From a virus: 64,000 nt of DNA. The DNA lies in the IMG/VR virus record IMGVR_UViG_3300021399_000004, positions 64,001 to 128,000 of that record, one strand, 5' to 3'. The position numbers were made by a program, and so were the translations under genes. This document shows positions 38,135 through 56,089 of this stretch, piece by piece. Position 1 is the first letter of the stretch. The number at the start of each line of letters is the position of its first letter. Under the pieces are notes generated by a model. The model was not told where the DNA came from and searched no databases. It saw only the letters and a program-made list of their open reading frames with translations.

Positions 38135-38154
38135 TTAGATGTTCAAACATCTAA
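38135..38154. repeat. 20-bp palindrome TTAGATGT-N4-ACATCTAA, copy 1/38
   Basis: Arms exact, centre TCAA. Precedes a + strand promoter. Confidence 0.95.
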
Positions 38155-38173
38155 CTTAAGGTGAATATAGGTC

Positions 38174-38202
38174 TTGACAAAATCAATGTTTTTTAGTATA
38201 CT
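38174..38202 (+). promoter_or_regulatory. SigA-type promoter
   Basis: TTGACA-17-TATACT, followed by the GTTCC-GAG-GGAAC hairpin. Confidence 0.7.
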
Positions 38203-38244
38203 CTAATTGTTCCGAGGGAACGAAATAAAAACCTGGAGGTAAGG

Positions 38245-38634
38245 TTGAGTATGATGTACATGCTGATTGGTTGGACTGACGGTTTCGGTAACGATGCTTA
38301 CGTGAAGAGCGTCTATCAGACGAGGGAAGAGGCACTCGCGGCGGCGATGCTGGATGATGAGATCCCTGACAAAGTTATTCCGTTTGAGTTTGGAGAAGCG
38401 ATTGATTTTGACTATGATGCGGCGGAAGATCTTGTGGAAAGGAAAGAAGAAATCGACTGGTTGCTTGTGGCTATAAACGCGGTGGATGATGATAAGTTTT
38501 ACTCCTTGCACGAAGAATGGTTTAATACTGGCTGCAATGAAGAAGAGGGAGACGGAGATGACGTTGATAAGTTAATTGCAAATCATAAAGATTGGCTGGA
38601 AGAATACTACAAAGAAAAGGGCGGCAAAATTTAA
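38245..38634 (+). CDS. Highly acidic protein, about 128 aa (DNA-mimic-like composition)
   Basis: SD GGAGG. TTG 38245 or ATG 38251. Asp/Glu-rich throughout. GC hairpin after the stop. Confidence 0.8.
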   Translation: MSMMYMLIGWTDGFGNDAYVKSVYQTREEALAAAMLDDEIPDKVIPFEFGEAIDFDYDAAEDLVERKEEIDWLLVAINAVDDDKFYSLHEEWFNTGCNEEEGDGDDVDKLIANHKDWLEEYYKEKGGKI

Positions 38635-38686
38635 GGGAGGCTATGGCCTCCTGGCCGGCCCGCTTCCAAATAAATTTCTCAAACCT

Positions 38687-38715
38687 CTGACAATCTATCT
38701 CACCTATGTTATAAT
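38687..38715 (+). promoter_or_regulatory. SigA-type promoter
   Basis: CTGACA-17-TATAAT. Confidence 0.6.
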
Positions 38716-38764
38716 GAACATGTTGAAAGCAGAAGGACACTGCTCAAACCGGAAAGGAAAGACT

Positions 38765-38959
38765 ATGGAAAAGAACACTAACTCTCGCAACGGCATCGGT
38801 TTTACTGGCCTGCTTACCATTGCTTTCATTGTGTTGAAGCTGTGCGGCGTGATTACTTGGTCTTGGGTATGGGTTCTGTCTCCGATTTGGATTTCTGTTG
38901 GGATTGCTCTGATTGCTACTGGGCTGCTGGTGATTGTCCATCTTATCCGGAAGCATTGA
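38765..38959 (+). CDS. Two-TM membrane protein, 64 aa
   Basis: SD GGAAAGGAAAG. Internal ATG of track ORF 38576..38959. Confidence 0.75.
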   Translation: MEKNTNSRNGIGFTGLLTIAFIVLKLCGVITWSWVWVLSPIWISVGIALIATGLLVIVHLIRKH

Positions 38960-38974
38960 GCATATGAGTATAAT

Positions 38975-38999
38975 AAAAAAGCCGGTCACCGGCTTTTTA
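38975..38999. terminator. Bidirectional terminator
   Basis: AAAAAGCCGGT-CA-CCGGCTTTTT. Confidence 0.8.
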
Positions 39000-39011
39000 T
39001 TTAGGACGCAT

Positions 39012-39031
39012 TTAGATGTTTAAACATCTAA
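39012..39031. repeat. 20-bp palindrome, copy 2/38
   Basis: Arms exact, centre TTAA. Confidence 0.95.
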
Positions 39032-39075
39032 AATCCTTTATAAAAAAAGTTAGGTTTCCCTAACTTTATAGTTTA

Positions 39076-39330
39076 TTATTTATACAAAAGGCACAGGAAG
39101 TAAACATTGAGGACAACGCTGGAGAGGTGCATGAGCACGTCATTGACGTGCCTGTGCTGCGACAAGTCCTTGCATACACCGAATAGCGCAATCGCAAGGC
39201 CGAACCATGAGACTTGAAGGCCGAAGAGCATAATCAGGACTACATTCAGGATAGTGATTCCGCACCGAAGATCATTCCATTCAAAGCGATACGGCATTGA
39301 AATGCCAAACCAGTTCTTTACTCGCTCCAT
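39076..39330 (-). CDS. Membrane protein, 84 aa
   Basis: Track ORF. ATG overlaps the upstream TAA (TAATG). SD GGAGGA. Confidence 0.8.
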   Translation of the reverse strand: MERVKNWFGISMPYRFEWNDLRCGITILNVVLIMLFGLQVSWFGLAIALFGVCKDLSQHRHVNDVLMHLSSVVLNVYFLCLLYK

Positions 39331-39623
39331 TATTCGTTATCCTCCATCGTGTCCTCGTAGCCGTAAACGTCACCCGCCCAACGGATTTCATCTTCTGCAA
39401 AATCCGTAGGGGCATCGGGATCAACGTCATCCGCGGCAAGCCAGTCTTCCCAAGTGGGGAAGAAGGCGTAGAAATCATCGCACGCTTCAATCGGATCTTC
39501 CATGTGGCACAGATTGCACTGGTCGCAGTAGGGGCAATCGCCATAGGCATTAACAGGGCAGTACACGGGGTCGCCGTTGCGGTAGCCGTCAGTTTCGTAG
39601 TGGTAATCCTTCATCGTGAACAT
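39330..39623 (-). CDS. Acidic Cys-rich protein, 97 aa
   Basis: Internal ATG (MFTMKDY) after GGAAAGGA. Confidence 0.75.
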   Translation of the reverse strand: MFTMKDYHYETDGYRNGDPVYCPVNAYGDCPYCDQCNLCHMEDPIEACDDFYAFFPTWEDWLAADDVDPDAPTDFAEDEIRWAGDVYGYEDTMEDNE

Positions 39624-39663
39624 ATCTGTCAATCCTTTCCGTTCCTCTCTCGGGAACAATGCT

Positions 39664-39692
39664 ATTATAGCATGGAGGTTAGTATTTGTCAA
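39664..39692 (-). promoter_or_regulatory. SigA-type promoter
   Basis: TTGACA-17-TATAAT. Confidence 0.7.
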
Positions 39693-39701
39693 GGGATAGA
39701 A

Positions 39702-39721
39702 TTAGATGTTTAAACATCTAA
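39702..39721. repeat. 20-bp palindrome, copy 3/38
   Basis: Arms exact, centre TTAA. Confidence 0.95.
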
Positions 39722-39758
39722 CCTTGTTTAAGAGAAAAGCCGCCGGGGCGGCGGTATA

Positions 39759-40229
39759 TTAGTCTGTGTTTCGGTCATTAAGGGTAAAAGAAATCTCTGT
39801 CCACCCATCAGAACAATTGCCTAATTCTTTGGTGAAGCCTTCAAGTTCAAACTTATCCATGAGGAAACTTCGCATTTCTCCTCCCCACCAAGCACAATTA
39901 ACTTTCCAAAATCTGCGGTCTTTCAGTTTTAGATATTTCTTTGCAAGTTTAATATTCCAACCAAGGCCGTTGTCATAGAAGTAAAAGGTTTTATTTTCGG
40001 CGTCCCATTCAGAGTTACGAGGAATGTAATAGTTTAGAATTTTAGCCGCACGTTCTTCATTCCAATTCTCTTTGCTGTTAAGCCATACATGAATTTTTTT
40101 AAGCATGAGACTGCCAATCCAAAATGGAAACAGAATTACACGAAGAATCTTGTAACTATTCTTGTTCCACCACTTGCGAATCTTGTGTTCTTTCTTGCCC
40201 CGCATCGCCTTGATAACTTCATTTGTCAT
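39759..40229 (-). CDS. Hypothetical protein with N-terminal TM, 156 aa
   Basis: Track ORF. SD AGAAAGGAAG. GC hairpin at the stop. Confidence 0.85.
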   Translation of the reverse strand: MTNEVIKAMRGKKEHKIRKWWNKNSYKILRVILFPFWIGSLMLKKIHVWLNSKENWNEERAAKILNYYIPRNSEWDAENKTFYFYDNGLGWNIKLAKKYLKLKDRRFWKVNCAWWGGEMRSFLMDKFELEGFTKELGNCSDGWTEISFTLNDRNTD

Positions 40230-40264
40230 AGTGGTTACTTCCTTTCTGTCCTTTGGACAGATTT

Positions 40265-40293
40265 ATTATAGTATAGAATAAAGAGAAAGTCAA
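40265..40293 (-). promoter_or_regulatory. SigA-type promoter
   Basis: TTGACT-17-TATAAT. Confidence 0.7.
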
Positions 40294-40302
40294 GTAGGAA
40301 TA

Positions 40303-40322
40303 TTAGATGTTTAAACATCTAA
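40303..40322. repeat. 20-bp palindrome, copy 4/38
   Basis: Arms exact, centre TTAA. Confidence 0.95.
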
Positions 40323-40364
40323 TGGGCTGGCCAGGTGACGGTATGATCGCCACCTAATACATTT

Positions 40365-40640
40365 TTAGTCTGTTTCCTTCTCATTTCGATGATACAATGT
40401 GTTAATAGTTTTACCTTCAGGAAGAGCGGCCAACCTCTTAATCCGCACATATTGCCAACGGTCATGAAGCAAGATAGCAGATCGGTAATCATAGTAAGTA
40501 GTGATAGTGTCTGTTTTCTGTGAATTGTAGACTAAAACACGTTCATCGTTAGCGAGATATTCATACAGTCCGTTTTCATAATCTACACGACAGAAGTCGG
40601 GTTGATGATAGTACACTTCCTTGCGCTTATGACTTTTCAT
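40365..40640 (-). CDS. Hypothetical protein, 91 aa
   Basis: Track ORF. SD AAGAAAGGGG. Confidence 0.85.
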   Translation of the reverse strand: MKSHKRKEVYYHQPDFCRVDYENGLYEYLANDERVLVYNSQKTDTITTYYDYRSAILLHDRWQYVRIKRLAALPEGKTINTLYHRNEKETD

Positions 40641-40680
40641 ACTTAGTATCCCCTTTCTTGTTCGGAGAGTGTCCTTCTCT

Positions 40681-40770
40681 TTACTTGTTTTTGTTATTCA
40701 TCAGTTGAATGATTGAGCAGACAATGATTGCGACTTGACAGATGACGATGATGACGGTTCTGGTGGTCAT
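40681..40770 (-). CDS. Hydrophobic peptide, 29 aa
   Basis: SD AGAAAGGAAC. ATG to TAA. First ORF after promoter 40812..40840. Confidence 0.5.
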   Translation of the reverse strand: MTTRTVIIVICQVAIIVCSIIQLMNNKNK

Positions 40771-40811
40771 AGTGGCGTTCCTTTCTGTTTCTCTCTTTCA
40801 GGAACAACTGT

Positions 40812-40840
40812 ATTATAGCATAGGTTGTGGCGATTGTCAA
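40812..40840 (-). promoter_or_regulatory. SigA-type promoter
   Basis: TTGACA-17-TATAAT. Confidence 0.7.
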
Positions 40841-40849
40841 GAGTTTTTT

Positions 40850-41005
40850 TCAAACTGCGCGCCATTCTCCTGTATTTGCGTCTTTAATAAATTCAACCGC
40901 AGGAATATAAATGTAGTTATCTTCGATGATTTCATATTCGGGGAAAGCATTGGGATTGGTTTCAAGAGTGTTATTGATGAAGGTGATGATTTCTTCGCGC
41001 GTCAT
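40850..41005 (-). CDS. Hypothetical protein, 51 aa
   Basis: Conserved leader plus SD AGAAAGGGG. ATG to TGA. Below the track cutoff. Confidence 0.65.
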   Translation of the reverse strand: MTREEIITFINNTLETNPNAFPEYEIIEDNYIYIPAVEFIKDANTGEWRAV

Positions 41006-41053
41006 TTGGTTCCCCTTTCTGGTTTATGGTGTTTTCCTTCACCTTTCAATGAT

Positions 41054-41082
41054 AGTATATCATAAGATACATTTTTTGTCAA
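41054..41082 (-). promoter_or_regulatory. SigA-type promoter
   Basis: TTGACA-17-TATACT. Confidence 0.7.
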
Positions 41083-41119
41083 GGGGTTTTGAAAATTTTT
41101 TGGCGGGCCGGTCTGTAGG

Positions 41120-41139
41120 TTAGATGTTCAAACATCTAA
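41120..41139. repeat. 20-bp palindrome, copy 5/38
   Basis: Arms exact, centre TCAA. Confidence 0.95.
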
Positions 41140-41187
41140 ATTGGTTCCGGTTAAGCGTGTCTAACTCTTGCATAAAAGAAAAGCCCC

Positions 41188-42198
41188 TTAGTAGGGGCAG
41201 ACGGTGTTTGTGTATTCAGCAAGGCGGTGAAGTTTGTTAATAAGACTTGCGCAATAGTTGCTAATGGTGTCACTTTCCATTTTTGCGTCAAGGTAGGCAG
41301 AAATTGCGTTATAGACCGTTTCGCACTCTTCCATTTTAGGGGTTTTGCGGCGAGTGACAAAATCTACGGTGTCGCCAAGATCACGGAATGGGAAATATTT
41401 GATACCAATTGATACGGCGTGACGCTTTGCAATGCGGGAAAGAATATAAGTTTCAATAATGGCATCGTCCAGGGCTGTGTGACTCTCTATGAAATCATAT
41501 TTGTTACAGAGATATTGATAAGTAGTTTCGGCGCTGGTCTTGAAATAAGTTCCGGAGGCGGTCAGTAGGCCATGTTTGAGGCACTCGGTTTTATAGGTGG
41601 CATTATTCAGAAGATGAGAAGTAGCAAGCCCCCAAAGGTCAAAGAGCGGATAGGTTTCGCCGCGGAAAGTGAAGGCGTCCGGGTTAAAGTCTTTGTCAGA
41701 ATCTTTCTTGTAGGGTTCATTCGCAATCTTCCGGCAGAGATTTTTTTGAATCTGTTCCCACTTCTGATAGTCGGGGCTGTACAGTTTGCGAATATACAAT
41801 TCAGTGAACGGGATGGCCTTCTTAAAGTCAAACATTGCGTTAAAGGCTCCAACAGCGTCAACTTTGTGCAAGTCGTTAATGAAAATTTCCATGACCGTAT
41901 CCCACGGGGCAAGAACGGTTTCTTTATTTTCCAGCATTGCCAGATACCGAGGGCGCTTTTCCGCATAATAGGCGGTATTGAATACGGCGGGAACGGCGAA
42001 CGTTTCGGCAATCAGAAATTGCTTGTTTTCCAGAATATCGCCCTGCCGGTTAGTAATAGTCCAGCCAATATCGTAAATGAGCGGCCTTGCAATAGCGATC
42101 TTCTTCTTCTTTTCGGGATCACCGTCGGCAATTTCAGAGGCGAACGGGAGGGTAGCGGTTTCGGTATCGACAACCATGTACAGACGGCGCTTGCTCAT
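41188..42198 (-). CDS. DEDDh (DnaQ-like) 3'-5' exonuclease, 336 aa
   Basis: Exo motifs VVDTETA, AFNAMFDF and HTALDDAIIE. Paralog of 50141..50902. Confidence 0.85.
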   Translation of the reverse strand: MSKRRLYMVVDTETATLPFASEIADGDPEKKKKIAIARPLIYDIGWTITNRQGDILENKQFLIAETFAVPAVFNTAYYAEKRPRYLAMLENKETVLAPWDTVMEIFINDLHKVDAVGAFNAMFDFKKAIPFTELYIRKLYSPDYQKWEQIQKNLCRKIANEPYKKDSDKDFNPDAFTFRGETYPLFDLWGLATSHLLNNATYKTECLKHGLLTASGTYFKTSAETTYQYLCNKYDFIESHTALDDAIIETYILSRIAKRHAVSIGIKYFPFRDLGDTVDFVTRRKTPKMEECETVYNAISAYLDAKMESDTISNYCASLINKLHRLAEYTNTVCPY

Positions 42199-42249
42199 AC
42201 GGCAGAAGTCCTTTCCGGTTTGAAGTGTTTTCCTTCACTTGATGGGTAC

Positions 42250-42278
42250 AGTATAACATAAGCGGTGATAAAAGTCAA
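42250..42278 (-). promoter_or_regulatory. SigA-type promoter
   Basis: TTGACT-17-TATACT. Confidence 0.7.
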
Positions 42279-42308
42279 TAGGGAAATTTGATGGGCATAG
42301 CCGTATTA

Positions 42309-42328
42309 TTAGATGTTCAAACATCTAA
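42309..42328. repeat. 20-bp palindrome, copy 6/38 (between divergent promoters)
   Basis: Arms exact, centre TCAA. Confidence 0.95.
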
Positions 42329-42357
42329 AAATGTTGAAGGAAAATTAAAAATATGGA

Positions 42358-42385
42358 TTGACTTTTTTATAAAGTCGAGTATAAT
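42358..42385 (+). promoter_or_regulatory. SigA-type promoter
   Basis: TTGACT-16-TATAAT. Confidence 0.65.
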
Positions 42386-42411
42386 ATAATTGTACCAAGA
42401 GAAAGGAGCCA

Positions 42412-42921
42412 ATGAAGATGACTGATTACAAGCAGGAAGCCCGTAAATTTTTGAAAGAATTTTCTCCTGCGTTAGAAAACTATAATGGTTCACTGACGTA
42501 TATGTGGCAGAAAGCCAAAGAATATAATAAAGGTAGAACGAAAATAAATCAAATTGTTTGTAGAAATGGTGCTACTCGGATAGCTCTTATCGGCAAGGAT
42601 TTTGTTGTAAAGATGGATTATGATGCTGATGATGATATAAAAATGTTTGGTGGATGCGGGAAAGAATACGCTTTGTATAGAAAATGTGTTCGTGAAAATT
42701 CGCCTTATTTGCATTGTTTATTGGAAATTGCTAAAATTAAAGTAGGCAATCATTTCTATTACATCATGCCAAAAGCAAACTATTGCGGGCATACTTCCTT
42801 CTTAAATTTCAATTGTGAAGAAAGAAACTGGCTGTATAGTCATGTAAATGATTTACATAATGGAAATATTGGAAAATATAACGGTAAACCTGTGGTTATT
42901 GATTATGCCTGTCAGTTCTGA
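42412..42921 (+). CDS. Hypothetical protein, 169 aa, with kinase-like DLHNGN...VIDYA motif
   Basis: Track ORF. SD GAAAGGAG. Hairpin GCCTGTCAG-TT-CTGACAGGC at the stop. Confidence 0.8.
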   Translation: MKMTDYKQEARKFLKEFSPALENYNGSLTYMWQKAKEYNKGRTKINQIVCRNGATRIALIGKDFVVKMDYDADDDIKMFGGCGKEYALYRKCVRENSPYLHCLLEIAKIKVGNHFYYIMPKANYCGHTSFLNFNCEERNWLYSHVNDLHNGNIGKYNGKPVVIDYACQF

Positions 42922-42944
42922 CAGGCATTTTCATTATTTGTAGA

Positions 42945-42964
42945 TTAGATGTTTGAACATCTAA
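42945..42964. repeat. 20-bp palindrome, copy 7/38
   Basis: Arms exact, centre TTGA. Confidence 0.95.
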
Positions 42965-43007
42965 CCTCTCTGGAAAAAAAGAAAAGCGGCCGAAGCCGCT
43001 TTAAGTG

Positions 43008-50975: not shown

Positions 50976-50992
50976 TAGCCTGGAAGATTAAA

Positions 50993-51012
50993 TTAGATGT
51001 TTAAACATCTAA
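50993..51012. repeat. 20-bp palindrome, copy 20/38
   Basis: Arms exact, centre TTAA. Confidence 0.95.
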
Positions 51013-51035
51013 CTCTATGTTAAAGGCTGGGGTGG

Positions 51036-51233: not shown

Positions 51234-51256
51234 CTTTTTTTACCTCTTTCTTTTTC

Positions 51257-51324
51257 TTTGTCGGGAGGGAGCGTGAGTCTCATCCACACTGTAGGCTTCC
51301 GAGGAATGCGTTTTCCCTCCCGAC
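51257..51324 (-). promoter_or_regulatory. Long 5'-UTR stem-loop (12-bp stem, about 44-nt loop)
   Basis: TGTCGGGAGGGA (51257-51268) pairs with TCCCTCCCGACA (51313-51324), between the -10 and the SD of 51036..51233. Confidence 0.6.
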
Positions 51325-51330
51325 AATGGT

Positions 51331-51359
51331 ATAATACCATATTACGGGAAAATTGTCAA
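51331..51359 (-). promoter_or_regulatory. SigA-type promoter
   Basis: TTGACA-17-TATTAT. Confidence 0.6.
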
Positions 51360-51388
51360 GAGGTTTTTTGAACTCGGAAAAAGGCTGT

Positions 51389-51408
51389 TTAGATGTTCAA
51401 ACATCTAA
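51389..51408. repeat. 20-bp palindrome, copy 21/38
   Basis: Arms exact, centre TCAA. Confidence 0.95.
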
Positions 51409-51449
51409 CCTGGTAAAATGGAATGGGCGGCTTTTCGCCGCCCGGTATC

Positions 51450-51686
51450 TTATCGATAATAATTCTGATTGTAGCGCTCATAAGCGCTCATTTTGCGGTA
51501 TTCATTGTATTCCAGCTCACTAATTTCTTTGCCCTGGATAATGGCGCGGGTGTGCTTAACGCTGGGCATCCGCTTGGCCCTGTCCATAGCTTCCAGCAGG
51601 TTTTCAGCTTTGATGGCGAAGGTGATTTCAGTGCTGTGGCCAATGCCGCAATGCCCCCGGTGGCAAGTAACCTTGTAATACTTCAT
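51450..51686 (-). CDS. Hypothetical protein, 78 aa
   Basis: Track ORF. SD AAAGGAG. Confidence 0.85.
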   Translation of the reverse strand: MKYYKVTCHRGHCGIGHSTEITFAIKAENLLEAMDRAKRMPSVKHTRAIIQGKEISELEYNEYRKMSAYERYNQNYYR

Positions 51687-51732
51687 GGTTTTTTCTCCTT
51701 TCTTTCGGTGGGTTTCCTCTCACCGTGATTAG

Positions 51733-51761
51733 AGTATAACATAATGGAGGATAAAAGTCAA
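51733..51761 (-). promoter_or_regulatory. SigA-type promoter
   Basis: TTGACT-17-TATACT. Confidence 0.7.
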
Positions 51762-51780
51762 TAGTGCATATTGAGTTCAT

Positions 51781-51800
51781 TTAGATGTTTGAACATCTAA
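51781..51800. repeat. 20-bp palindrome, copy 22/38
   Basis: Arms exact, centre TTGA. Confidence 0.95.
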
Positions 51801-51828
51801 CCTAAAGGAAACAAAAAGGGGCGGAGGT

Positions 51829-52134
51829 TTATCCCTCCGCCTCAATCTTTTTGATCTTATTTCGCAATTCATTAATCTGCTGGTTCAACGCTTTAATCTG
51901 TGCTTGCTTGAGTCTTTTTGCCCGTTCCTTTTCCCAAAAATCCCACGTCATAACGATTTTATAATCTACGTCATGCGTCAACACTTTTGCGCGGAACAGC
52001 GTCATCAAAGAACAGGCGTGATTTTCATGCAGAATGTTTTCAGCTTCTTTTAAGTTCATCGTGCCTTTTTCAAGGCGGGGCAGCAGCAGGGCCATGCCGT
52101 AGGCAACAGCGGGGTTATTGTTTTTCTCTACCAT
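51829..52134 (-). CDS. Hypothetical protein with coiled-coil tail, 101 aa
   Basis: Track ORF. Confidence 0.85.
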   Translation of the reverse strand: MVEKNNNPAVAYGMALLLPRLEKGTMNLKEAENILHENHACSLMTLFRAKVLTHDVDYKIVMTWDFWEKERAKRLKQAQIKALNQQINELRNKIKKIEAEG

Positions 52135-52174
52135 CGTTCCAATCTCCTTTTATGTATTTTCTGGGAACGTCTAT

Positions 52175-52203
52175 AATATAGCATAAAGTCATAAGATTGT
52201 CAA
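52175..52203 (-). promoter_or_regulatory. SigA-type promoter
   Basis: TTGACA-17-TATATT. Confidence 0.6.
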
Positions 52204-52220
52204 GACTTTTTTATGGCAGA

Positions 52221-52240
52221 TTAGATGTTCAAACATCTAA
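52221..52240. repeat. 20-bp palindrome, copy 23/38
   Basis: Arms exact, centre TCAA. Confidence 0.95.
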
Positions 52241-52270
52241 CTTGGAGAAGAATAAAAAAAGGGTGGAGGG

Positions 52271-52549
52271 TCACCCCTCCACCTTCTGAATCTCACCGGT
52301 AAAAATGTTGTAACGCTGACCGGTAGTGTACAGCTCTTTCGCCAGCTGATAGGTCAGACCACGTTCCTGCATGAACCACCGAATGTGGTTAATAGTAGTG
52401 CGGCTATACAGCCCGTTGCAATACAGCCACCCGTTAGAATCAATCTCAATTACAGTGGTGGTGTAGCTGACCAGCTTTCCGGAAAAGCCGTCATTGTTCA
52501 CGTACTCACGCGCCTGCGCATACTCGTGACCGTTCAGTTTCTTCATCAT
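52271..52549 (-). CDS. Hypothetical protein, 92 aa
   Basis: Track ORF. Confidence 0.85.
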   Translation of the reverse strand: MMKKLNGHEYAQAREYVNNDGFSGKLVSYTTTVIEIDSNGWLYCNGLYSRTTINHIRWFMQERGLTYQLAKELYTTGQRYNIFTGEIQKVEG

Positions 52550-52597
52550 TGTTGTGATCCTCCATTTTTTTATTCTGTACCTCTTTGGTACGGTTAT

Positions 52598-52626
52598 ATA
52601 TTAGCATATACGGTTAAAAAAGTCAA
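52598..52626 (-). promoter_or_regulatory. SigA-type promoter (weak -10)
   Basis: TTGACT-17-TAATAT. Confidence 0.55.
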
Positions 52627-52645
52627 TAGGATTTTTCGCCTGATT

Positions 52646-52665
52646 TTAGATGTTCAAACATCTAA
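52646..52665. repeat. 20-bp palindrome, copy 24/38
   Basis: Arms exact, centre TCAA. Confidence 0.95.
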
Positions 52666-52706
52666 AAGAGTTTAATAAAGAGTAGGCGCAAAGCCTACTC
52701 TTTTTA

Positions 52707-52871
52707 TTACTTAATGGCGCAATTGGTATGGCTGTAATGCAACCGCCAATTGAGATATTCGCAGCTGCAAGGGTCAAGAATGTCATCATACCCGCACTCT
52801 TCGGCGTCTTCCCACAGTTCGTCATACGTTACCAAGTTGCCCATCTCTTTGTTCATGTAGTAGAATTCCAT
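52707..52871 (-). CDS. Hypothetical protein, 54 aa
   Basis: SD GGAGG. ATG to TAA. Hairpin AGTAGGC-GCAA-GCCTACT after the stop. Below the track cutoff. Confidence 0.7.
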   Translation of the reverse strand: MEFYYMNKEMGNLVTYDELWEDAEECGYDDILDPCSCEYLNWRLHYSHTNCAIK

Positions 52872-52913
52872 TGTAGTGACCTCCATTTTTTATTATCCCC
52901 TCGGGACGATTAT

Positions 52914-52942
52914 AGTTTACCATACATATGATATATTGTCAA
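52914..52942 (-). promoter_or_regulatory. SigA-type promoter (weak -10)
   Basis: TTGACA-17-TAAACT. Confidence 0.5.
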
Positions 52943-52950
52943 GATGGAAT

Positions 52951-52970
52951 TTAGATGTTTGAACATCTAA
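52951..52970. repeat. 20-bp palindrome, copy 25/38
   Basis: Arms exact, centre TTGA. Confidence 0.95.
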
Positions 52971-53061
52971 TAATGTTTTGGGTTTGTGGCGGAGGTATTT
53001 TATACTAAAATGTTTAAGTATATTAAAAATGAAATAGGAGGGAATACCCTCCTATTTCATC

Positions 53062-53364
53062 TTAGCAGTAGGCAAGGCTCATGTTCGCCCACTTGAGAAC
53101 CGAAATCTGATTGTGCTTGCGGCCGATCTCCATCGCCTGCCGCTTAGTCTTGACGCGGAAGCTGTGATCGATGTAGTAAACGCCGTCGCTGTACCAGATC
53201 CCGCAGCTGCCGTTCATCTTCTTTACAGCTTCCGCAGCTTCCGCAGCCGTCTTGCATTCAACCCCGTGATCGGCCACCTGCCAACCCGTCTTGTAGGTGA
53301 TGACCTTGCCGTTCTTCAGGGTGAGACCATCGTTGTTCTTGAGCGCCTTGAGCATTTCCAACAT
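53062..53364 (-). CDS. Hypothetical protein, 100 aa
   Basis: Track ORF. Terminator AAATAGGAGGG-AATA-CCCTCCTATTT. Confidence 0.85.
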   Translation of the reverse strand: MLEMLKALKNNDGLTLKNGKVITYKTGWQVADHGVECKTAAEAAEAVKKMNGSCGIWYSDGVYYIDHSFRVKTKRQAMEIGRKHNQISVLKWANMSLAYC

Positions 53365-53409
53365 TGTTGCATCCTCTTTTCTTTTTATTCTGTCCCTTCG
53401 GACAAGTAT

Positions 53410-53438
53410 ATATTACCATATAGCAAGCAAAAAGTCAA
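53410..53438 (-). promoter_or_regulatory. SigA-type promoter (weak -10)
   Basis: TTGACT-17-TAATAT. Confidence 0.55.
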
Positions 53439-53456
53439 GGGCATTTTTGAGAGGAA

Positions 53457-53476
53457 TTAGATGTTTAAACATCTAA
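53457..53476. repeat. 20-bp palindrome, copy 26/38
   Basis: Arms exact, centre TTAA. Confidence 0.95.
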
Positions 53477-53508
53477 CATAAGGAAGGCCCTAACAGGGCC
53501 GTAGATAA

Positions 53509-53700
53509 TTAACAATTCCACTGGATATTGCCAGGCTCGAAAATCGCTACGATCTCGCCGGTGCCCTCACGCATGACGTCGGTAGCAAGGTTGCACTCAT
53601 GAAACATGCGGAAGGCCATGATCTTAGCGGCCCATTCGCTATTGAACTTGATACCATAGGTGAAGGGCTGCCGGTTGATGTAGTAAGTCACAGTGTACAT
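53509..53700 (-). CDS. Hypothetical protein, 63 aa
   Basis: ATG (MYTVTYY) lies 8 nt after AAGGAGG. The track ORF starts 2 codons earlier at TTG. Confidence 0.8.
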   Translation of the reverse strand: MYTVTYYINRQPFTYGIKFNSEWAAKIMAFRMFHECNLATDVMREGTGEIVAIFEPGNIQWNC

Positions 53701-53731
53701 AATCAATGCCTCCTTTTCTTGGAACGATTAT

Positions 53732-53760
53732 AGTATATCATACTTGTTTTTGTTTGTCAA
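53732..53760 (-). promoter_or_regulatory. SigA-type promoter
   Basis: TTGACA-17-TATACT. Confidence 0.7.
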
Positions 53761-53777
53761 TAGGAAAATAAAAAAGA

Positions 53778-53797
53778 TTAGATGTTGAAACATCTAA
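53778..53797. repeat. 20-bp palindrome, copy 27/38
   Basis: Arms exact, centre TGAA. Confidence 0.95.
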
Positions 53798-53824
53798 CCC
53801 TGGAGAGAAAAAAGGTAAACCGCC

Positions 53825-53980
53825 TTAGCGGTCTACCTCAACAATGACGTATTTCCAAGTCCGGCCCAGTTGCTGCCCACGTTCCACATAATGCTTGCCA
53901 ATTTTCTCAGCTTCTTCGCGGGTAGAGAACGTATCGGCCATGTTGCACGTGTACTTGCCAATGATGTAAAGCTCGAACAT
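53825..53980 (-). CDS. Hypothetical protein, 51 aa (paralog of 54427..54591)
   Basis: SD AAAGGAAGGA. FSTREEAEKIGKHYVERG aligns with FSTNEEAENTGKQYVNRG. Confidence 0.7.
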   Translation of the reverse strand: MFELYIIGKYTCNMADTFSTREEAEKIGKHYVERGQQLGRTWKYVIVEVDR

Positions 53981-54018
53981 GTTGATTCCTTCCTTTCTGT
54001 TCCCTTTGGAACGATTAC

Positions 54019-54047
54019 ATTATAGCATACTTGTGAAGAAAAATCAA
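54019..54047 (-). promoter_or_regulatory. SigA-type promoter
   Basis: TTGATT-17-TATAAT. Confidence 0.6.
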
Positions 54048-54065
54048 GTGGTTTGCACTATTTCA

Positions 54066-54085
54066 TTAGATGTTGAAACATCTAA
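54066..54085. repeat. 20-bp palindrome, copy 28/38
   Basis: Arms exact, centre TGAA. Confidence 0.95.
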
Positions 54086-54110
54086 CCTTGGTGGAGGATG
54101 GGCGGGCCGA

Positions 54111-54272
54111 TTAGCCCGCCATTTCCTTAACCCACGCCGCGGCGTCCTTCCAATTATCAAAGCTAAGCCGTCCAAAATCATAGTTGAATACTACCCATGT
54201 GCTATGCGAATCAAGGTCATCATAGTAATAGCCCATCTTTTCCATCCGTGCAATGATAGTCCGCTTTGCCAT
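54111..54272 (-). CDS. Hypothetical protein, 53 aa
   Basis: SD AAAGGAG. Hairpin GGCGGGC-N6-GCCCGCC spans the stop. Confidence 0.7.
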   Translation of the reverse strand: MAKRTIIARMEKMGYYYDDLDSHSTWVVFNYDFGRLSFDNWKDAAAWVKEMAG

Positions 54273-54310
54273 CGTACATTCTCCTTTCTTTATCCCCTTG
54301 GGACAATATC

Positions 54311-54339
54311 ATTATATAGGATTTTAGTATGTTTGTCAA
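54311..54339 (-). promoter_or_regulatory. SigA-type promoter
   Basis: TTGACA-17-TATAAT. Confidence 0.7.
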
Positions 54340-54378
54340 TAGGCATTGTAAAAAAATTAATAGAAAATAAAATTAAGA

Positions 54379-54398
54379 TTAGATGTTTAAACATCTAA
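54379..54398. repeat. 20-bp palindrome, copy 29/38
   Basis: Arms exact, centre TTAA. Confidence 0.95.
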
Positions 54399-54426
54399 CC
54401 TTCAATTGTTAAAGTGTCTCCCGCGA

Positions 54427-54591
54427 TTAAGCGGGAGCGGAAAGAACGAAGTAATCCCAATCATGGCCCAGCTCGGTGCCCCGGTTAACGTACTGCTTGC
54501 CGGTGTTTTCAGCTTCTTCATTGGTGGAGAACTTACCAATCAAGTAGAAGCTATACTTGCTAACGATGTACAATCTGTAAATGGTGTCCAT
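54427..54591 (-). CDS. Hypothetical protein, 54 aa (paralog of 53825..53980)
   Basis: SD GGAAAGGAAGGA. Hairpin CTCCCGC-N6-GCGGGAG at the stop. Confidence 0.7.
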   Translation of the reverse strand: MDTIYRLYIVSKYSFYLIGKFSTNEEAENTGKQYVNRGTELGHDWDYFVLSAPA

Positions 54592-54629
54592 ATGTTTTCC
54601 TTCCTTTCCGTTCCTCTTGGAACGTCTAT

Positions 54630-54658
54630 ATTATAGCATACTCGCAATTACTTGTCAA
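54630..54658 (-). promoter_or_regulatory. SigA-type promoter
   Basis: TTGACA-17-TATAAT. Confidence 0.7.
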
Positions 54659-54676
54659 CGTGTTTATGAAAATGAA

Positions 54677-54696
54677 TTAGATGTTCAAACATCTAA
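54677..54696. repeat. 20-bp palindrome, copy 30/38
   Basis: Arms exact, centre TCAA. Confidence 0.95.
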
Positions 54697-54707
54697 CTCT
54701 TGGAGGC

Positions 54708-54851
54708 TCACGCCTCCTCTTCTACCCGTTCAAAGTTATCACGGCAGAACGATTCATAGGAATCATACCACTTAGAGAAATATTTATACTGCTCATACAT
54801 TTCTTCTTCCGTAATGTATCTTTCCATTTCCCAATCATACCATTTAGCCAT
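54708..54851 (-). CDS. Hypothetical acidic protein, 47 aa
   Basis: SD AAAGGAGGAAAAG. Hairpin GGAGGC-TCAC-GCCTCC at the stop. Confidence 0.65.
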   Translation of the reverse strand: MAKWYDWEMERYITEEEMYEQYKYFSKWYDSYESFCRDNFERVEEEA

Positions 54852-54893
54852 TTTCTTTTCCTCCTTTTTTGTTCGTTCCTTTGGAACAGTTAT

Positions 54894-54922
54894 ATTATAT
54901 CATGGTAGGATAGTCCTGTCAA
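54894..54922 (-). promoter_or_regulatory. SigA-type promoter
   Basis: TTGACA-17-TATAAT. Confidence 0.7.
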
Positions 54923-54940
54923 CAGAGTGAGAAAAATAAA

Positions 54941-54960
54941 TTAGATGTTCAAACATCTAA
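54941..54960. repeat. 20-bp palindrome, copy 31/38
   Basis: Arms exact, centre TCAA. Confidence 0.95.
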
Positions 54961-54976
54961 CAACGTTGGTGGGCCG

Positions 54977-55102
54977 TTAGGCCCACCGCATCAATTCATC
55001 AAATTCCTCAAAAGTCATGGGGTCGTCCTCATCAGTATTCGCCTGATACTCCCAGAACAGATAGATCTGCTCCGCGTCGGTCAGTTCATCCCAATTAATC
55101 AT
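54977..55102 (-). CDS. Hypothetical acidic protein, 41 aa
   Basis: SD GAAGGAG. Hairpin GGTGGGCC-GTTA-GGCCCACC at the stop. Confidence 0.6.
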   Translation of the reverse strand: MINWDELTDAEQIYLFWEYQANTDEDDPMTFEEFDELMRWA

Positions 55103-55149
55103 TTTTGTTTTCTCCTTCGTTTCTTTATTTTGTCCCTCCGGACAAGTAT

Positions 55150-55178
55150 AGTATACTGTATGTTCAATAAAAAGTCAA
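55150..55178 (-). promoter_or_regulatory. SigA-type promoter
   Basis: TTGACT-17-TATACT. Confidence 0.7.
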
Positions 55179-55196
55179 CATGAATTTTTCAGAGGA

Positions 55197-55216
55197 TTAG
55201 ATGTTTAAACATCTAA
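55197..55216. repeat. 20-bp palindrome, copy 32/38
   Basis: Arms exact, centre TTAA. Confidence 0.95.
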
Positions 55217-55331
55217 CTTTTGAAAAAAACGATGATAAGTTTCTTTGCTATTTTTTTACCGATAAGTCATGCGGAAGAAATAGCAGAAAGTACTGCCTGA
55301 TTTGATAGAAAAGTCATCACATTCAAATCTA

Positions 55332-55499
55332 TTAAATAATTATTCTAGCTTGTCGGTGTCCAGCTGGCGCCCAGCTGGTGTCCAGCTGGCTGGCCCGTAG
55401 GGCGCGAGTTGCGCCGCGGCGAGCCTCAAAAAATTTATAGGTAACTATGATAAACAGATCTTCTTGATTCTCTTTTTTAGGTGGTAGTTGGAGAGACAT
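55332..55499 (-). CDS. Questionable ORF, 55 aa, containing the CAGCTG repeat block
   Basis: SD GGAGGGG and ATG to TAA. The GC-rich repeat inside it may be a DNA or RNA element rather than coding sequence. Confidence 0.3.
   Translation of the reverse strand: MSLQLPPKKENQEDLFIIVTYKFFEARRGATRALRASQLDTSWAPAGHRQARIII
55361..55388. repeat. Three CAGCTG cores phased at exactly 11 bp (GTCCAGCTGG-like units)
   Basis: Cores at 55361-66, 55372-77 and 55383-88. Confidence 0.85.
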
Positions 55500-55517
55500 T
55501 GCCCCTCCAATGATGAT

Positions 55518-55546
55518 AGTATACTACATTACACGTTCATTGTCAA
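55518..55546 (-). promoter_or_regulatory. SigA-type promoter
   Basis: TTGACA-17-TATACT. Confidence 0.7.
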
Positions 55547-55564
55547 TCATGATAGCGTGGATAA

Positions 55565-55584
55565 TTAGATGTTCAAACATCTAA
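55565..55584. repeat. 20-bp palindrome, copy 33/38
   Basis: Arms exact, centre TCAA. Confidence 0.95.
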
Positions 55585-55602
55585 CTACCATGGGCATCCG
55601 GA

Positions 55603-55622
55603 CATCTAACTACTGTTAGATG
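55603..55622. repeat. Everted half-site pair CATCTAAC-TACT-GTTAGATG
   Basis: The same half-sites as the 20-bp palindrome, in swapped order. Confidence 0.8.
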
Positions 55623-55653
55623 CGAAAAAAGGGGGGGCTTGCGCCCCTCCTTT

Positions 55654-55965
55654 TTACTTCATTGTTTTGAACCAGTAGTTTTCATTGGTGTTCCAGTAGT
55701 GCAGGCGGCACAGTCGGCTGTTCCAGCTCTTAACAATAGCGTCCGGCGGGCAATCCGTCAAGTGGCGGCTCAGCCCTTCACCGCAGGCAATCTCAACCTT
55801 GAGATAGAACCCTTCGGCGGTCTTACCCTCCCGCGTGATCTTTACCATGGGAGTGGCGCCGCGCCCGCCCTTCAAGTAGTAGTGGCGCGCGGTCTTTTCC
55901 AGCAGGCGAACCATGGTCAGCAGGTTGAAGTAGTCGGGAGCGAAGACGGCGATCAGAATCATCAT
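55654..55965 (-). CDS. Hypothetical protein, 103 aa (paralog of 59744..60055)
   Basis: SD GGAGGTG before the internal ATG. The C-terminus HYWNTNENYWFKT matches HAWNTNDDYWYET. Confidence 0.8.
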   Translation of the reverse strand: MMILIAVFAPDYFNLLTMVRLLEKTARHYYLKGGRGATPMVKITREGKTAEGFYLKVEIACGEGLSRHLTDCPPDAIVKSWNSRLCRLHYWNTNENYWFKTMK

Positions 55966-56011
55966 GATGGACACCTCCAAATTTTTTTCTGTTCCCCCTT
56001 GGAACAATTGT

Positions 56012-56040
56012 ATTATAGCATACATCATTCATCCTGTCAA
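56012..56040 (-). promoter_or_regulatory. SigA-type promoter
   Basis: TTGACA-17-TATAAT. Confidence 0.7.
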
Positions 56041-56069
56041 CCCCTATTTTACATCTAAAAATGCATTAG

Positions 56070-56089
56070 TTAGATGTTGAAACATCTAA
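56070..56089. repeat. 20-bp palindrome, copy 34/38
   Basis: Arms exact, centre TGAA. Confidence 0.95.

Follow-up and report, generated by a model that had tools for sequence, protein, structure and literature searches.

The 64,000-nucleotide stretch of phage DNA analyzed here (positions 64,001 to 128,000 of IMG/VR virus record IMGVR_UViG_3300021399_000004; hereafter, the window) raises the question of how a region made up of very small genes, nearly every one of them with a strong promoter of its own, is organized, and what part is played in it by a palindrome, TTAGATGTTNNAACATCTAA, that recurs ahead of these promoters. The preliminary description of this DNA had reported such a region at 38135-56089 and had likened it to the mobile cassettes of T4-type phages. 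We find that the region, at 38135-57282 and organized mainly on the minus strand, is an array of about 37 self-contained promoter-gene-terminator cassettes, delimited by 39 palindromes and far beyond chance expectation. With moderate confidence, we explain it by mobile regulatory cassettes that resemble the promoter-early stem-loop (PeSL) cassettes of T4-type phages, combined with a clade-specific operator for a dimeric protein that would act on RNA polymerase.

The palindrome is present in 39 copies with at most three mismatches, 36 of them exact, against an expectation of 0.09 in shuffled sequences, and all 39 fall within the ~19 kb at 38135-57282. Units were defined by the 38 palindromes with at most one mismatch; the 39th copy, with three mismatches, belongs to a half-site array at 57254-57295. 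A strict promoter pattern (at most one mismatch per hexamer and a 17-bp spacer) identifies 34 minus-strand and 4 plus-strand promoters in this interval, compared to 2.1 +/- 1.5 on both strands together in dinucleotide shuffles, and their consensus is TTGACa-N17-TATAaT with TG at -15/-14. A generic scan yields 83 promoter-like sites versus 43.4 +/- 7.0 in shuffled sequence, with ~40 sites matching at least 10/12 positions on the minus strand, and 50 terminator-like sites versus 16.6 +/- 4.2; the flanking 22-38.2 kb shows no enrichment of either kind (58 versus 50.7 promoter-like and 14 versus 13.1 terminator-like sites). Furthermore, the mean folding energy of the sequences that separate the last stop codon of a unit from the following palindrome is -16.0 kcal/mol, compared to -7.3 kcal/mol after shuffling.

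Promoters matching at least 10/12 positions are found in 32 units. The 31 coding units hold 37 open reading frames (ORFs) with good Shine-Dalgarno sequences (SDs), distributed over 26 single-gene units, four two-gene units and one three-gene unit, so that the scarcity of multi-gene units noted at the outset is borne out. These ORFs have a median length of 91 amino acids (aa), 34 of the 37 do not exceed 160 aa, and their G+C content is 47%, compared to 37% in the late region. The array also includes four promoter units without an ORF and two plus-strand cassettes. The limits first proposed for the region are thus too narrow on the right, where four ORF-less units carry it to 57282; the unit layout holds on the coding strand, with the qualification that for two cassettes this is the plus strand.

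Read along the minus strand in 50.1-56.5 kb, the units follow a fixed order of elements: the palindrome, 7-39 nt of unrelated sequence, a promoter, a hairpin, an SD, an ORF and a GC-rich hairpin. The promoter has the format TTGAC[AT], 17 nt ending in TG-n, and TATA[AC]T, with a short hairpin 4-8 nt later; the SD is long, purine-rich and AGAAAGGAGG-like, and the GC-rich hairpin lies at or just past the stop codon. The unit at 54697-54960 can be considered canonical. Its palindrome (54941-54960) precedes a promoter at 54922-54894 that matches all 12 positions and has the TG element, followed by the 5' hairpin TGTTCC-AAA-GGAACG, the SD AAAGGAGG, an ORF of 47 aa (54851-54708) and the GC hairpin GGAGGCgtgaGCCTCC, which holds the TGA stop codon in its loop. 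This grammar is the one originally described, and the Firmicutes-type character of its signals (SigA-type promoters with TG and long SDs) is equally supported, in a phage lineage unrelated to T4-like phages.

To place the palindrome in an evolutionary context, we compared the window with 23 relatives, consisting of IMG/VR loci fetched via the exonuclease gene, whose contigs measure 18-181 kb (more than 80 kb in 11 cases) and whose exonucleases share 44-67% identity with that of the window. Among the copies in the window, identity per position reaches 0.97-1.00 for the palindrome, compared to 0.3-0.6 for the sequence on either side. With an AT content of 70%, the palindrome has two to three G-C pairs in its stem. 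Each unit has a GC-rich terminator of different sequence, as befits an element that needs only its structure, whereas the palindrome is invariant, which argues for sequence-specific recognition. All 23 relatives carry an abundant palindrome, in 12-40 copies per 14-21 kb and mostly followed by a SigA-type promoter. This palindrome is uniform within each genome and is altered symmetrically in both halves between lineages, taking the forms TTAGATGTT-N-AACATCTAA, TTAGGTGTT-N-AACACCTAA, TTAGGTGGT-N-ACCACCTAA, TTAGGTGTA-N, TTTACTGTA-N3-TACAGTAAA and TTAGACGA; among these loci, a 2-nt palindrome centre is found in the window only.

The position of the palindrome relative to the promoter is also constrained. 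In the window, the distance from its centre to the first base of the -35 box falls into classes of 17-19 (9 units), 27-29 (19 units), 38-40 (4 units) and 46-49 bp (3 units), yielding a Rayleigh R of 0.87 at a 10.25-bp period, whereas none of 5000 random draws exceeded 0.49. The relatives have 18.5 bp as their main distance (208 of 313) and smaller classes at about 30, 41 and 50 bp. The intervening sequences within a distance class share pairwise identities of 0.32-0.37, versus 0.30 expected from composition, indicating that spacing, and not sequence, is conserved. Promoters on the plus strand are in phase as well, at 29 bp (38174-38202) and 39 bp from the palindrome centre, and the palindrome at 42309-42328 lies midway between divergent promoters, a single copy being available to both strands. 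Lone half-sites, TTAGATGT, are found 10 times in 55602-59120, nine of them on the minus strand, where 0.17 per strand would be expected; eight lie inside the AT-rich stretch at 56090-59150 and the other two (55602 and 56051) just outside it, and some form tandem arrays with a 19-20-bp period (56080-56146 and 57254-57295). Since a lone half-site cannot form a hairpin, these copies argue that the element is read as DNA and not as RNA. Taken together, dyad symmetry, invariant sequence and a fixed helical face constitute what we read as the signature of an operator for a dimeric protein that would touch polymerase or bend DNA towards it.

The palindrome was not multi-copy in the 185,579 GTDB species-representative genomes, in JGI metagenome contigs or in IMG/VR contigs, where only isolated single copies and one contig with two were detected. 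This argues against a host regulon, and no prophage copy was found; combined with lineage specificity, it points to a phage-encoded reader. A literature search with the palindrome sequence returned unrelated primer matches only. A resemblance to the integron core site (GTTRRRY) was considered and dropped, because neither order nor symmetry fits. As a separate observation, palindromes with a TA centre, or with a TG/CA centre on one strand, contain stop codons in all three frames (e.g. 54379-54398), with TAG at positions 2-4, TAA or TGA at 10-12 and TAA at 18-20; in TA-centre copies this applies to both strands.

Comparison of related loci reveals that cassettes are exchanged as units. In the only informative strain pair found by exact-protein look-up, which is 99.6% identical over ~16.7 kb, a 350-aa PcfJ-like ORF (46146-45094) is swapped for an unrelated 122-aa ORF; on one side, the palindrome, promoter and leader still match as far as the SD, and on the other the match is regained at the next palindrome. 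Single-nucleotide differences between the two strains cluster by unit, with 17 of them, for instance, in the unit adjoining the swap. Eight pairs of more distant relatives provided 198 distinct breakpoints. Of the left breakpoints, 83 of 101 map 0-95 nt downstream of a palindrome, within the linker, and 51 of 97 right breakpoints map within -15 to +2 nt of a palindrome, where 7% would be expected at random, with the proviso that the linkers are all alike and alignments tend to end there, so that these statistics are partly built in. Many whole-unit insertions and deletions show a 22-42-bp overlap that corresponds to the repeated linker.

The gene family of 42412-42921 always forms a single-gene unit between two palindromes, in sense orientation in eight loci and in antisense orientation in four, and at the antisense loci the longer gap on the side of the promoter (64-92 nt) changes places with the shorter one on the side of the terminator (14-32 nt). 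In this family, a whole cassette has thus been inverted between flanking palindromes. Gene order across the 24 loci consists of a conserved core with many lineage-specific insertions, and gene content varies strongly. The array also contains sets of paralogues (three winged-helix proteins, two proteins with a tail rich in lysine and alanine [K/A-tailed], two exonuclease-like proteins and two proteins of ~52 aa at 54591-54427 and 53980-53825), from which it follows that cassette duplication occurs besides exchange. The likeness to T4-type cassettes that had been suggested from the window alone is thereby strengthened, since whole cassettes are replaced, inserted, deleted and inverted among relatives with breakpoints in the linkers, and the exchange conforms to the operational definition of PeSL-mediated modular shuffling (PMC2839356).

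The leaders that follow the promoters fall into several structured classes. In the window and its relatives, 121 of 800 promoter-like sites are followed by a perfect hairpin of at least 5 bp starting 2-9 nt past the -10 box, compared to 26 in shuffled sequences, and about half of the window promoters have a hairpin within 4-8 nt (GTTCC/GGAAC, GTCC/GGAC, GTACC/GGTAC and others). A second class combines a variable 4-bp stem with an invariant 8-nt loop, AAGGAAAA, followed by AAACCAGAAAGG before the start codon. It comprises 101 instances, 66 of them distinct, in the window and loci L015-L037 (in the window, for example, at 46195-46150, 42250-42200, 41054-41008 and 44994-44942). Covariation in its stem is 0.635, compared to 0.182 in shuffles, none of 500 of which was as high, and to at most 0.14 in slid controls; no Rfam family corresponds to this leader. 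A third, longer leader is closed by a helix between TGTCAGGAGGG and CCYTCYTGACA that includes sense-strand G-U pairs; the -35 box of a second promoter, in tandem with the first, is overlapped by the 3' arm. Five copies were compared (47256-47114, 43519-43409, 51331-51240 and 60900-60790 in the window, and 7102-7235 of locus L038, from phage phAss-1 [OQ749652]), and the long leader precedes two of the winged-helix genes. In Bacillus, 5'-terminal stem-loops and SD-like 'STAB-SD' sequences shield mRNAs from 5'-end-dependent decay, and by analogy the leader hairpins and SD-like sequences most likely serve in mRNA stabilization.

These observations can be accommodated in a single scheme. We propose that the region is an early region transcribed by the host polymerase and built as a chain of ~37 autonomous cassettes, in which the palindrome would be a double-stranded operator for a sequence-specific dimeric protein, most likely encoded by the phage. 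From a fixed helix face 5' of the -35 box, the bound protein would act on RNA polymerase and place all early promoters under joint control. Its most probable effect would be to silence these very strong promoters once the early phase is over, much as phi29 p4 does at strong promoters, with activation being less likely. The promoters are already near-consensus with an extended -10, so that activation seems unnecessary, and strong promoters left unsilenced would compete with middle and late transcription, which favours shut-off. Coordinated shut-off of early promoters is thus suggested, by analogy, as a tentative first choice for the role of the palindrome, held short of an even expectation; we deem activation of these promoters unlikely, and reserve what remains for boundary or recombination roles. 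The 5' hairpins and SD-like leaders would stabilize the short mRNAs, and the linkers, above all the palindrome, would supply short homology for the gain, loss, replacement and inversion of cassettes when relatives co-infect a cell. Owing to the symmetry of the palindrome, each pair of copies is at once a direct and an inverted repeat, so that inversion is possible. That one palindrome holds two jobs in these 130-180-kb TAG-recoded Firmicutes phages, as common operator for ~35-40 promoters and as a symmetrical, integrase-free joint between cassettes, is a bolder proposition, which we regard as conceivable and rather doubtful.

Several points weigh against the proposed operator. To the built-in component of the breakpoint statistics must be added that the promoters and terminators counted above are consensus and fold matches, defined at the sequence level only. 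Promoters so close to consensus can do without an activator, and polymerase is not occluded by a site whose centre lies at about -53 to -84, so that a mechanism of repression can be suggested by analogy only. Palindromes are also present at two convergent junctions devoid of promoters (42945-42964 and 39012-39031), which a boundary or recombination role fits better than a purely regulatory one. Furthermore, in the window, position -1 is G in 23 of 38 palindromes and position +1 is T in 28 of 38, an extension of the G-U type on the sense strand that is not found in the relatives.

The candidates considered as readers of the palindrome likewise count against the proposal. Two families are present clade-wide and went undetected in GenBank phages, including phAss-1 and Enterococcus phage EF1 (MF001358). 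The first comprises the three winged-helix paralogues (49976-49632, 47061-46723 and 43340-43008), which show weak similarity to DUF6958 and are modelled (predicted local distance difference test [pLDDT] 89.8) as generic winged-helix folds with weak PDB matches; we set it aside as reader because the recognition helix is unchanged across palindrome types. The second comprises the K/A-tailed proteins (49285-48920 and 44940-44548), modelled with a pLDDT of 93 as a helix-sheet-long-helix arrangement with a tail rich in lysine and alanine, and was rejected because it shows no PDB fold or sequence match and no known DNA-binding fold. Outside the array, a minus-strand module at 30162-30909 encodes a Cro-like helix-turn-helix (HTH) protein of 69 aa, a protein of 78 aa with counterparts in several relatives, and a winged-helix protein of 110 aa similar to replication organizers; this module may have a regulatory or replication-initiation role. 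Its Cro-like protein (30700-30909) was also set aside as reader, because the orthologues diverge strongly and several relatives have none at that position. The winged-helix trio and the 69-aa HTH protein are candidate readers, none of which co-varies with palindrome type.

A different explanation would make the palindrome mainly a recombination site, recognized, perhaps as a cruciform or hairpin, by a phage recombinase or a structure-specific nuclease that moves or flips cassettes, in an integron-like system where regulation is secondary. The coincidence of indel, replacement and inversion breakpoints with palindromes is in its favour, as are the copies at promoterless convergent junctions, a perfect symmetry that permits either orientation, and a combination of within-genome uniformity and lineage specificity such as a recombinase target would display. 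A pure recombination model, however, leaves the phasing to the -35 box across unrelated spacers unexplained, and the spread of left breakpoints over 0-95 nt, with overlaps of 22-42 bp, fits homologous exchange. Moreover, the lone half-sites of the AT-rich region are not cassette boundaries, and no recombinase or integrase family was recognized among the window proteins scanned, which represent a part of the genome and of its proteins. We judge a mainly recombinational role to be unlikely.

The same symmetry could alternatively be exploited in RNA, where a palindrome hairpin would act as a back-up terminator, an RNase III-type processing site or the site of an RNA-binding regulator. The palindrome does lie directly after each GC-rich terminator, T-rich sequence often comes next, the scan scores several copies as terminator-like, the RNA hairpin has a folding energy of -9 to -13 kcal/mol (z-scores, -4 to -6), and the wobble extension of the window adds a mean of 1.9 pairs on the sense strand versus 0.55 on the antisense strand. 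The palindrome nevertheless fails as an intrinsic terminator, with only two to three G-C pairs, an invariant sequence and an inconsistent downstream T-tract, and its conservation concerns the sequence itself and not just pairing, whereas true terminators vary freely. Mismatched pairs in the core of the palindromes of the 23 relatives are 16 G-U, 13 A-C and 30 other, so that G-U shows no excess over A-C and there is no wobble bias on the sense strand, with the flanks following the opposite trend (in the window, the palindromes comprise 346 Watson-Crick pairs, 4 G-U and 1 other). Half-sites cannot fold, phasing to the -35 box is a property of DNA, and one copy serves promoters on both strands. 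Because of the G-U/A-C symmetry, the lone half-sites and the phasing, we rejected the RNA-hairpin reading, whose probability we consider very low. It is also conceivable that no dedicated protein is involved, and that the palindrome is an intrinsic DNA element (a UP-element-like contact site of the polymerase alpha subunit, curved DNA or a supercoil-absorbing cruciform) or a site for a general host protein. UP elements and upstream curved DNA are familiar from E. coli rrnB P1 and from the Alu156 promoter of Bacillus phage SP82; like them, the palindrome, 70% AT, lies 5' of the -35 box in helical phase, and the candidates examined gave no phage binder. Symmetrical, lineage-specific changes combined with within-genome uniformity would be unexpected, however, for an element acting by shape only, some lineages have centres containing G+C (TTAGGTGGT-N-ACCACCTAA and TTAGACGAC), and the exact motif is never multi-copy in the species-representative genomes searched. 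There is, in our estimation, little likelihood of such an element, and the operator for a dimeric protein, joined to mobile cassettes, remains the explanation we prefer.

The closest known counterpart of this arrangement is provided by the PeSL cassettes in the hyperplastic regions of T4-type phages (PMC2839356, PMC4122927). Both systems have repeated intergenic linkers that combine a consensus promoter for the host sigma factor with a stem-loop terminator and precede small ORFans of an early region that is plastic; transcriptional insulation of each cassette, predicted here from its signals, is a further common trait, and the junctions of indels and replacements between related phages lie inside the linkers. 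The lineage studied here is, however, unrelated to T4-like myoviruses with a Gram-negative sigma-70 host, and as lineage and host signals differ, we regard the array as an analogue of PeSLs and not as a homologue. It further differs in having an extra 19-20-bp perfect AT-rich palindrome, which is genome-specific, invariant, phased to the -35 box and separate from the GC terminator, as well as conserved hairpins in the 5' untranslated region and cassette inversion. In phAss-1 and EF1, which are distant and partly cultured relatives, almost every small early gene likewise has a strong, near-consensus promoter of its own (27 and 21 promoters in 21-25 kb), and there is no palindrome. There, the terminator stem encloses the -35 box (e.g. 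AAAGGG-TTGACAA-CCCTTT), or the spacer is an A6T5 palindrome, AAAAAATTTTT, a layout closer to classical PeSLs than that of the window. We found no description of this promoter-per-gene layout of phAss-1 and EF1 in the literature.

Among phages of Gram-positive hosts, the host-takeover module of SPO1, reportedly described by Stewart et al. in 1998, is said to contain 24 small genes in 12 operons with strong early promoters, SDs and terminators. It shares with the array dense and strong SigA-type early promoters, strong ribosome-binding sites, terminators between operons and many very small genes of unknown function. The array differs in its higher density, with about one promoter per gene, and in the absence of sequence homology, and SPO1 is not known to have a common palindromic element.

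Phage operators in many copies are exemplified by the conserved inverted repeats of phiC31. The stoperators of L5-type mycobacteriophages are asymmetric 13-14-bp sites in one orientation inside transcription units, where they stop prophage elongation (PMC9283540). Here too, tens of copies of one short conserved intergenic site, putatively bound by protein, would give a single protein global control. The site in the window, in contrast to stoperators, is a symmetric 20-mer that follows terminators, precedes promoters and keeps in phase with the -35 box. Among the window proteins scanned, none was recognized as a repressor or an integrase, and GTDB, with no multi-copy prophage match, gave no sign of lysogeny; the window covers about half of the genome. 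Protein p4 of phi29 binds upstream on one face of the DNA and contacts the C-terminal domain of the polymerase alpha subunit, repressing strong promoters, from which an over-stabilized polymerase fails to escape, and activating weak ones. The putative dimer site of the array lies likewise 5' of the -35 box on a fixed helical face; p4, in contrast, acts at three promoters and not at ~35, its site differs in sequence and spacing, and no p4 homologue was detected. Upstream action of this kind conforms to the general principle of class-I type regulators (PMC11806353). Integron attC arrays, finally, also consist of small-ORF cassettes that are separated by palindromic sites uniform within an array and that are gained or lost as units. 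Their attC sites, however, are imperfect palindromes of 57-141 bp that IntI recombines as folded single strands, compared to 20 perfect base pairs here, and integron cassettes are promoterless and depend on a common Pc, whereas every cassette here has its own promoter and no integrase match was found among the window proteins scanned.

With regard to cargo, family matches among the cassette products comprise two DEDD-exonuclease-like proteins (phrog_20187), an NT5C-like deoxynucleotidase, a PcfJ-like protein, a DUF8033 protein and the winged-helix trio; the remaining products gave no family match in the scan of window proteins. Of the 37 products, 18 are acidic, 10 are basic, 6 have at least four cysteines and 4 are membrane-like. 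By analogy, a role of this cargo in host takeover or anti-defence is plausible.

The individual units are described here from right to left, on the minus strand unless stated otherwise, with palindrome, promoter and ORF given in this order in brackets. Tandem, iteron-like half-sites with a 20-bp period mark the right end at 57254-57295 and include the degenerate palindrome 57263-57282. The ORF-less units lie at 56984-57239 (57220-57239; 57211-57183, TTGACT/TGgTATAAT), 56748-56983 (56964-56983; 56955-56927), 56449-56747 (56728-56747; 56719-56691) and 56090-56448 (56429-56448, one mismatch; 56392-56364; with the half-site array 56080-56146). Coding units begin with 55585-56089 (56070-56089; 56040-56012, matching 12/12; 55965-55654, 103 aa), which has the 5' hairpin TTGTTCC/GGAACAG, and continue with 55217-55584 (55565-55584; 55546-55518; 55499-55332, 55 aa) and 54961-55216 (55197-55216; 55178-55150; 55102-54977, 41 aa and acidic). 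Past the canonical unit follow 54399-54696 (54677-54696; 54658-54630; 54591-54427, 54 aa), 54086-54398 (54379-54398; 54339-54311, 39 nt past the palindrome; 54272-54111, 53 aa), 53798-54085 (54066-54085; 54047-54019; 53980-53825, 51 aa, the paralogue of 54591-54427) and 53477-53797 (53778-53797; 53760-53732; 53700-53509, 63 aa). The promoter is weaker, at 9/12, in 52971-53476 (53457-53476; 53438-53410; 53364-53062, 100 aa). A Cys-rich product of 54 aa is encoded in 52666-52970 (52951-52970; 52942-52914; 52871-52707), and the DUF8033 protein of 92 aa in 52241-52665 (52646-52665; 52626-52598, 9/12; 52549-52271).

Next to these lie 51801-52240 (52221-52240; 52203-52175; 52134-51829, 101 aa), 51409-51800 (51781-51800; 51761-51733; 51686-51450, 78 aa) and 51013-51408 (51389-51408; 51359-51331; 51233-51036, 65 aa), the last with a long structured leader (GTCGGGAGGG...CCCTCCCGAC). 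The DEDD-exonuclease-like protein of 253 aa (phrog_20187) is encoded in 50117-51012 (50993-51012; 50975-50947; 50902-50141), and a winged-helix paralogue of 114 aa in 49590-50116 (50097-50116; 50077-50049; 49976-49632). Two promoters, 49562-49534 and 49359-49331, are found in unit 48887-49589 (palindrome 49570-49589), which encodes a hydrophobic product of 49 aa (49505-49356) and, as second ORF, a product of 121 aa with a K/A-rich C-terminal helix (49285-48920). The NT5C-like nucleotidase of 145 aa belongs to 48318-48886 (48867-48886; 48847-48819; 48767-48330). A leader of type B is found in 47862-48317 (48298-48317; 48290-48262; 48211-47903, 102 aa), and 47313-47861 (47842-47861, one mismatch; 47824-47796) has two ORFs, 47757-47569 (62 aa) and 47518-47327 (63 aa). 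In 46681-47312 (palindrome 47293-47312), tandem promoters at 47284-47256 and 47142-47114, with a structured GTCAGGAGGG leader between them, precede a winged-helix ORF of 112 aa (47061-46723). Type-B leaders recur in 46262-46680 (46661-46680; a weak promoter near 46642-46614, TTGATT/TATACT; 46562-46275, 95 aa) and in 45062-46261 (46242-46261; 46223-46195; 46146-45094, the PcfJ-like protein of 350 aa).

Further left, 44529-45061 (45042-45061; 45022-44994; 44940-44548) encodes the 130-aa paralogue of 49285-48920, and is followed by 44129-44528 (44509-44528; 44490-44462; 44434-44144, 96 aa) and the two-gene unit 43587-44128 (44109-44128; 44080-44052; 44003-43818, 61 aa, and 43815-43603, 70 aa). 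Tandem promoters (43547-43519 and 43437-43409) also serve 42965-43586 (palindrome 43567-43586), with the winged-helix ORF 43340-43008 (110 aa) whose model gave the pLDDT quoted above. The inverted cassette at 42309-42964 occupies the plus strand between palindromes 42309-42328 and 42945-42964, with a promoter at 42358-42385, the 169-aa ORF 42412-42921 and a terminator of its own at 42905-42928. Its palindrome 42309-42328 is common to the divergent minus-strand unit 41140-42328 (promoter 42278-42250), which encodes the second exonuclease-like paralogue (42198-41188, 336 aa). Unit 40323-41139 (palindrome 41120-41139) has promoters at 41082-41054 and 40840-40812 and ORFs 41005-40850 (51 aa), 40770-40681 (29 aa) and 40640-40365 (91 aa). 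The last minus-strand units are 39722-40322 (40303-40322; 40293-40265; 40229-39759, 156 aa) and 39032-39721 (39702-39721; 39692-39664; 39623-39330, 97 aa and Cys-rich, and 39330-39076, 84 aa and membrane-like). The left-end unit, 38135-39031, is on the plus strand between palindromes 38135-38154 and 39012-39031, with promoters at 38174-38202 and 38687-38715 and small ORFs such as 38576-38959.

An ORF-less AT-rich stretch (56090-59150) lies 5' of the coding cassettes, with a GC fraction of ~0.21 at 56-58 kb. It contains a (TATATATG)n microsatellite at 58143-58509, ATA repeats and the four ORF-less palindrome-promoter units, and could be a candidate replication origin, a DNA entry end or a source of non-coding RNAs. 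Beyond it lies the first minus-strand operon (59197-60906), which has no palindrome and whose extended -10, TGtGCTATACT, ends near 60901 and is followed by a GCCGGGAGGG leader and by ORFs 60782-60126, 60055-59744, 59683-59465 and 59400-59197 (218, 103, 72 and 67 aa). With 61% G+C and GC-rich terminators, this operon stands out as a strong compositional island.

The window is part of a TAG-recoded phage, a feature that the preliminary description had missed together with the phased, operator-like and lineage-specific character of the palindrome and its place at the junction of exchange. Exact-protein matches of window proteins identify the contig as a 129,144-bp ENA metagenome scaffold; we take the samples to be rumen metagenomes, judging by their names. 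Under the standard code, the longest ORF in the window is 350 aa. Reading through TAG yields plus-strand ORFs of 838, 654, 788, 2109, 686 and 509 aa in 1-24.4 kb, with 5-17 in-frame TAG codons each; the largest product, of 2109 aa (13151-19480), has 17, and TAG-containing products on this strand include a tail protein and an endolysin. Farther to the right, the same strand encodes a sigma-like product (3 in-frame TAG), a YonG_N-like product and a terminase-like one (2 TAG). TAG-dependent late and structural genes thus occupy 1-24383, 36379-37788 and 61121-64000, all on the plus strand, and the in-frame TAG codons of late genes, together with the long ORFs that read-through restores, match the pattern of phages with code 15 (TAG to Gln). 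The 37 cassette ORFs, in turn, end in TAA (32) or TGA (5) and contain no internal TAG, which fits genes that need to be translated before any suppressor exists, and it is from host-type promoters and the absence of TAG that we infer their early timing.

ARAGORN detected no tRNA gene in the 64-kb window, so that any suppressor tRNA must sit elsewhere in the genome, and the window had no Rfam match at gathering thresholds. Megablast returned no GenBank phage match to the cassette region or the late region. The GenBank records closest in protein sequence are those of phAss-1 and of several Enterococcus phages of 134-142 kb, with exonucleases 27-31% identical; phAss-1 is a 136-kb human-gut phage placed in the 'Caudoviricetes code 15 clade' (PMC10607447). 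As an additional observation, SigA-type promoters matching 12/12 positions, with TG, are present on the plus strand at 36334-36362 and 61077-61106, each directly 5' of a TAG-containing gene, helicase-like (36379-37788, 8 TAG) and sigma-factor-like (61121-62428, 3 TAG), respectively. These two genes could be transcribed early and translated only after TAG suppression, which would act as a translational timer.

The array extends the principle of mobile regulatory cassettes, documented so far for T4-like phages of Gram-negative hosts, to unrelated large gut and rumen phages of Firmicutes. Its new component is an invariant, phased and lineage-specific palindrome, which predicts a single global regulator of early genes. 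As judged from its signals, the region would constitute a library of ~35 insulated parts (strong promoter, 5' stabilizer, SD and terminator) for Gram-positive hosts, and its ~37 small early proteins are a defined set to screen for host-takeover or anti-defence activity. Cassettes free of TAG contrast with TAG-bearing neighbours whose host-type promoters are just as strong, a pattern compatible with TAG suppression as a means of translational timing. If the palindrome does hold two jobs, its 20 bp would encode evolvability along with regulation, and through the lone half-site arrays of the AT-rich region its protein could also be connected with replication or DNA entry.

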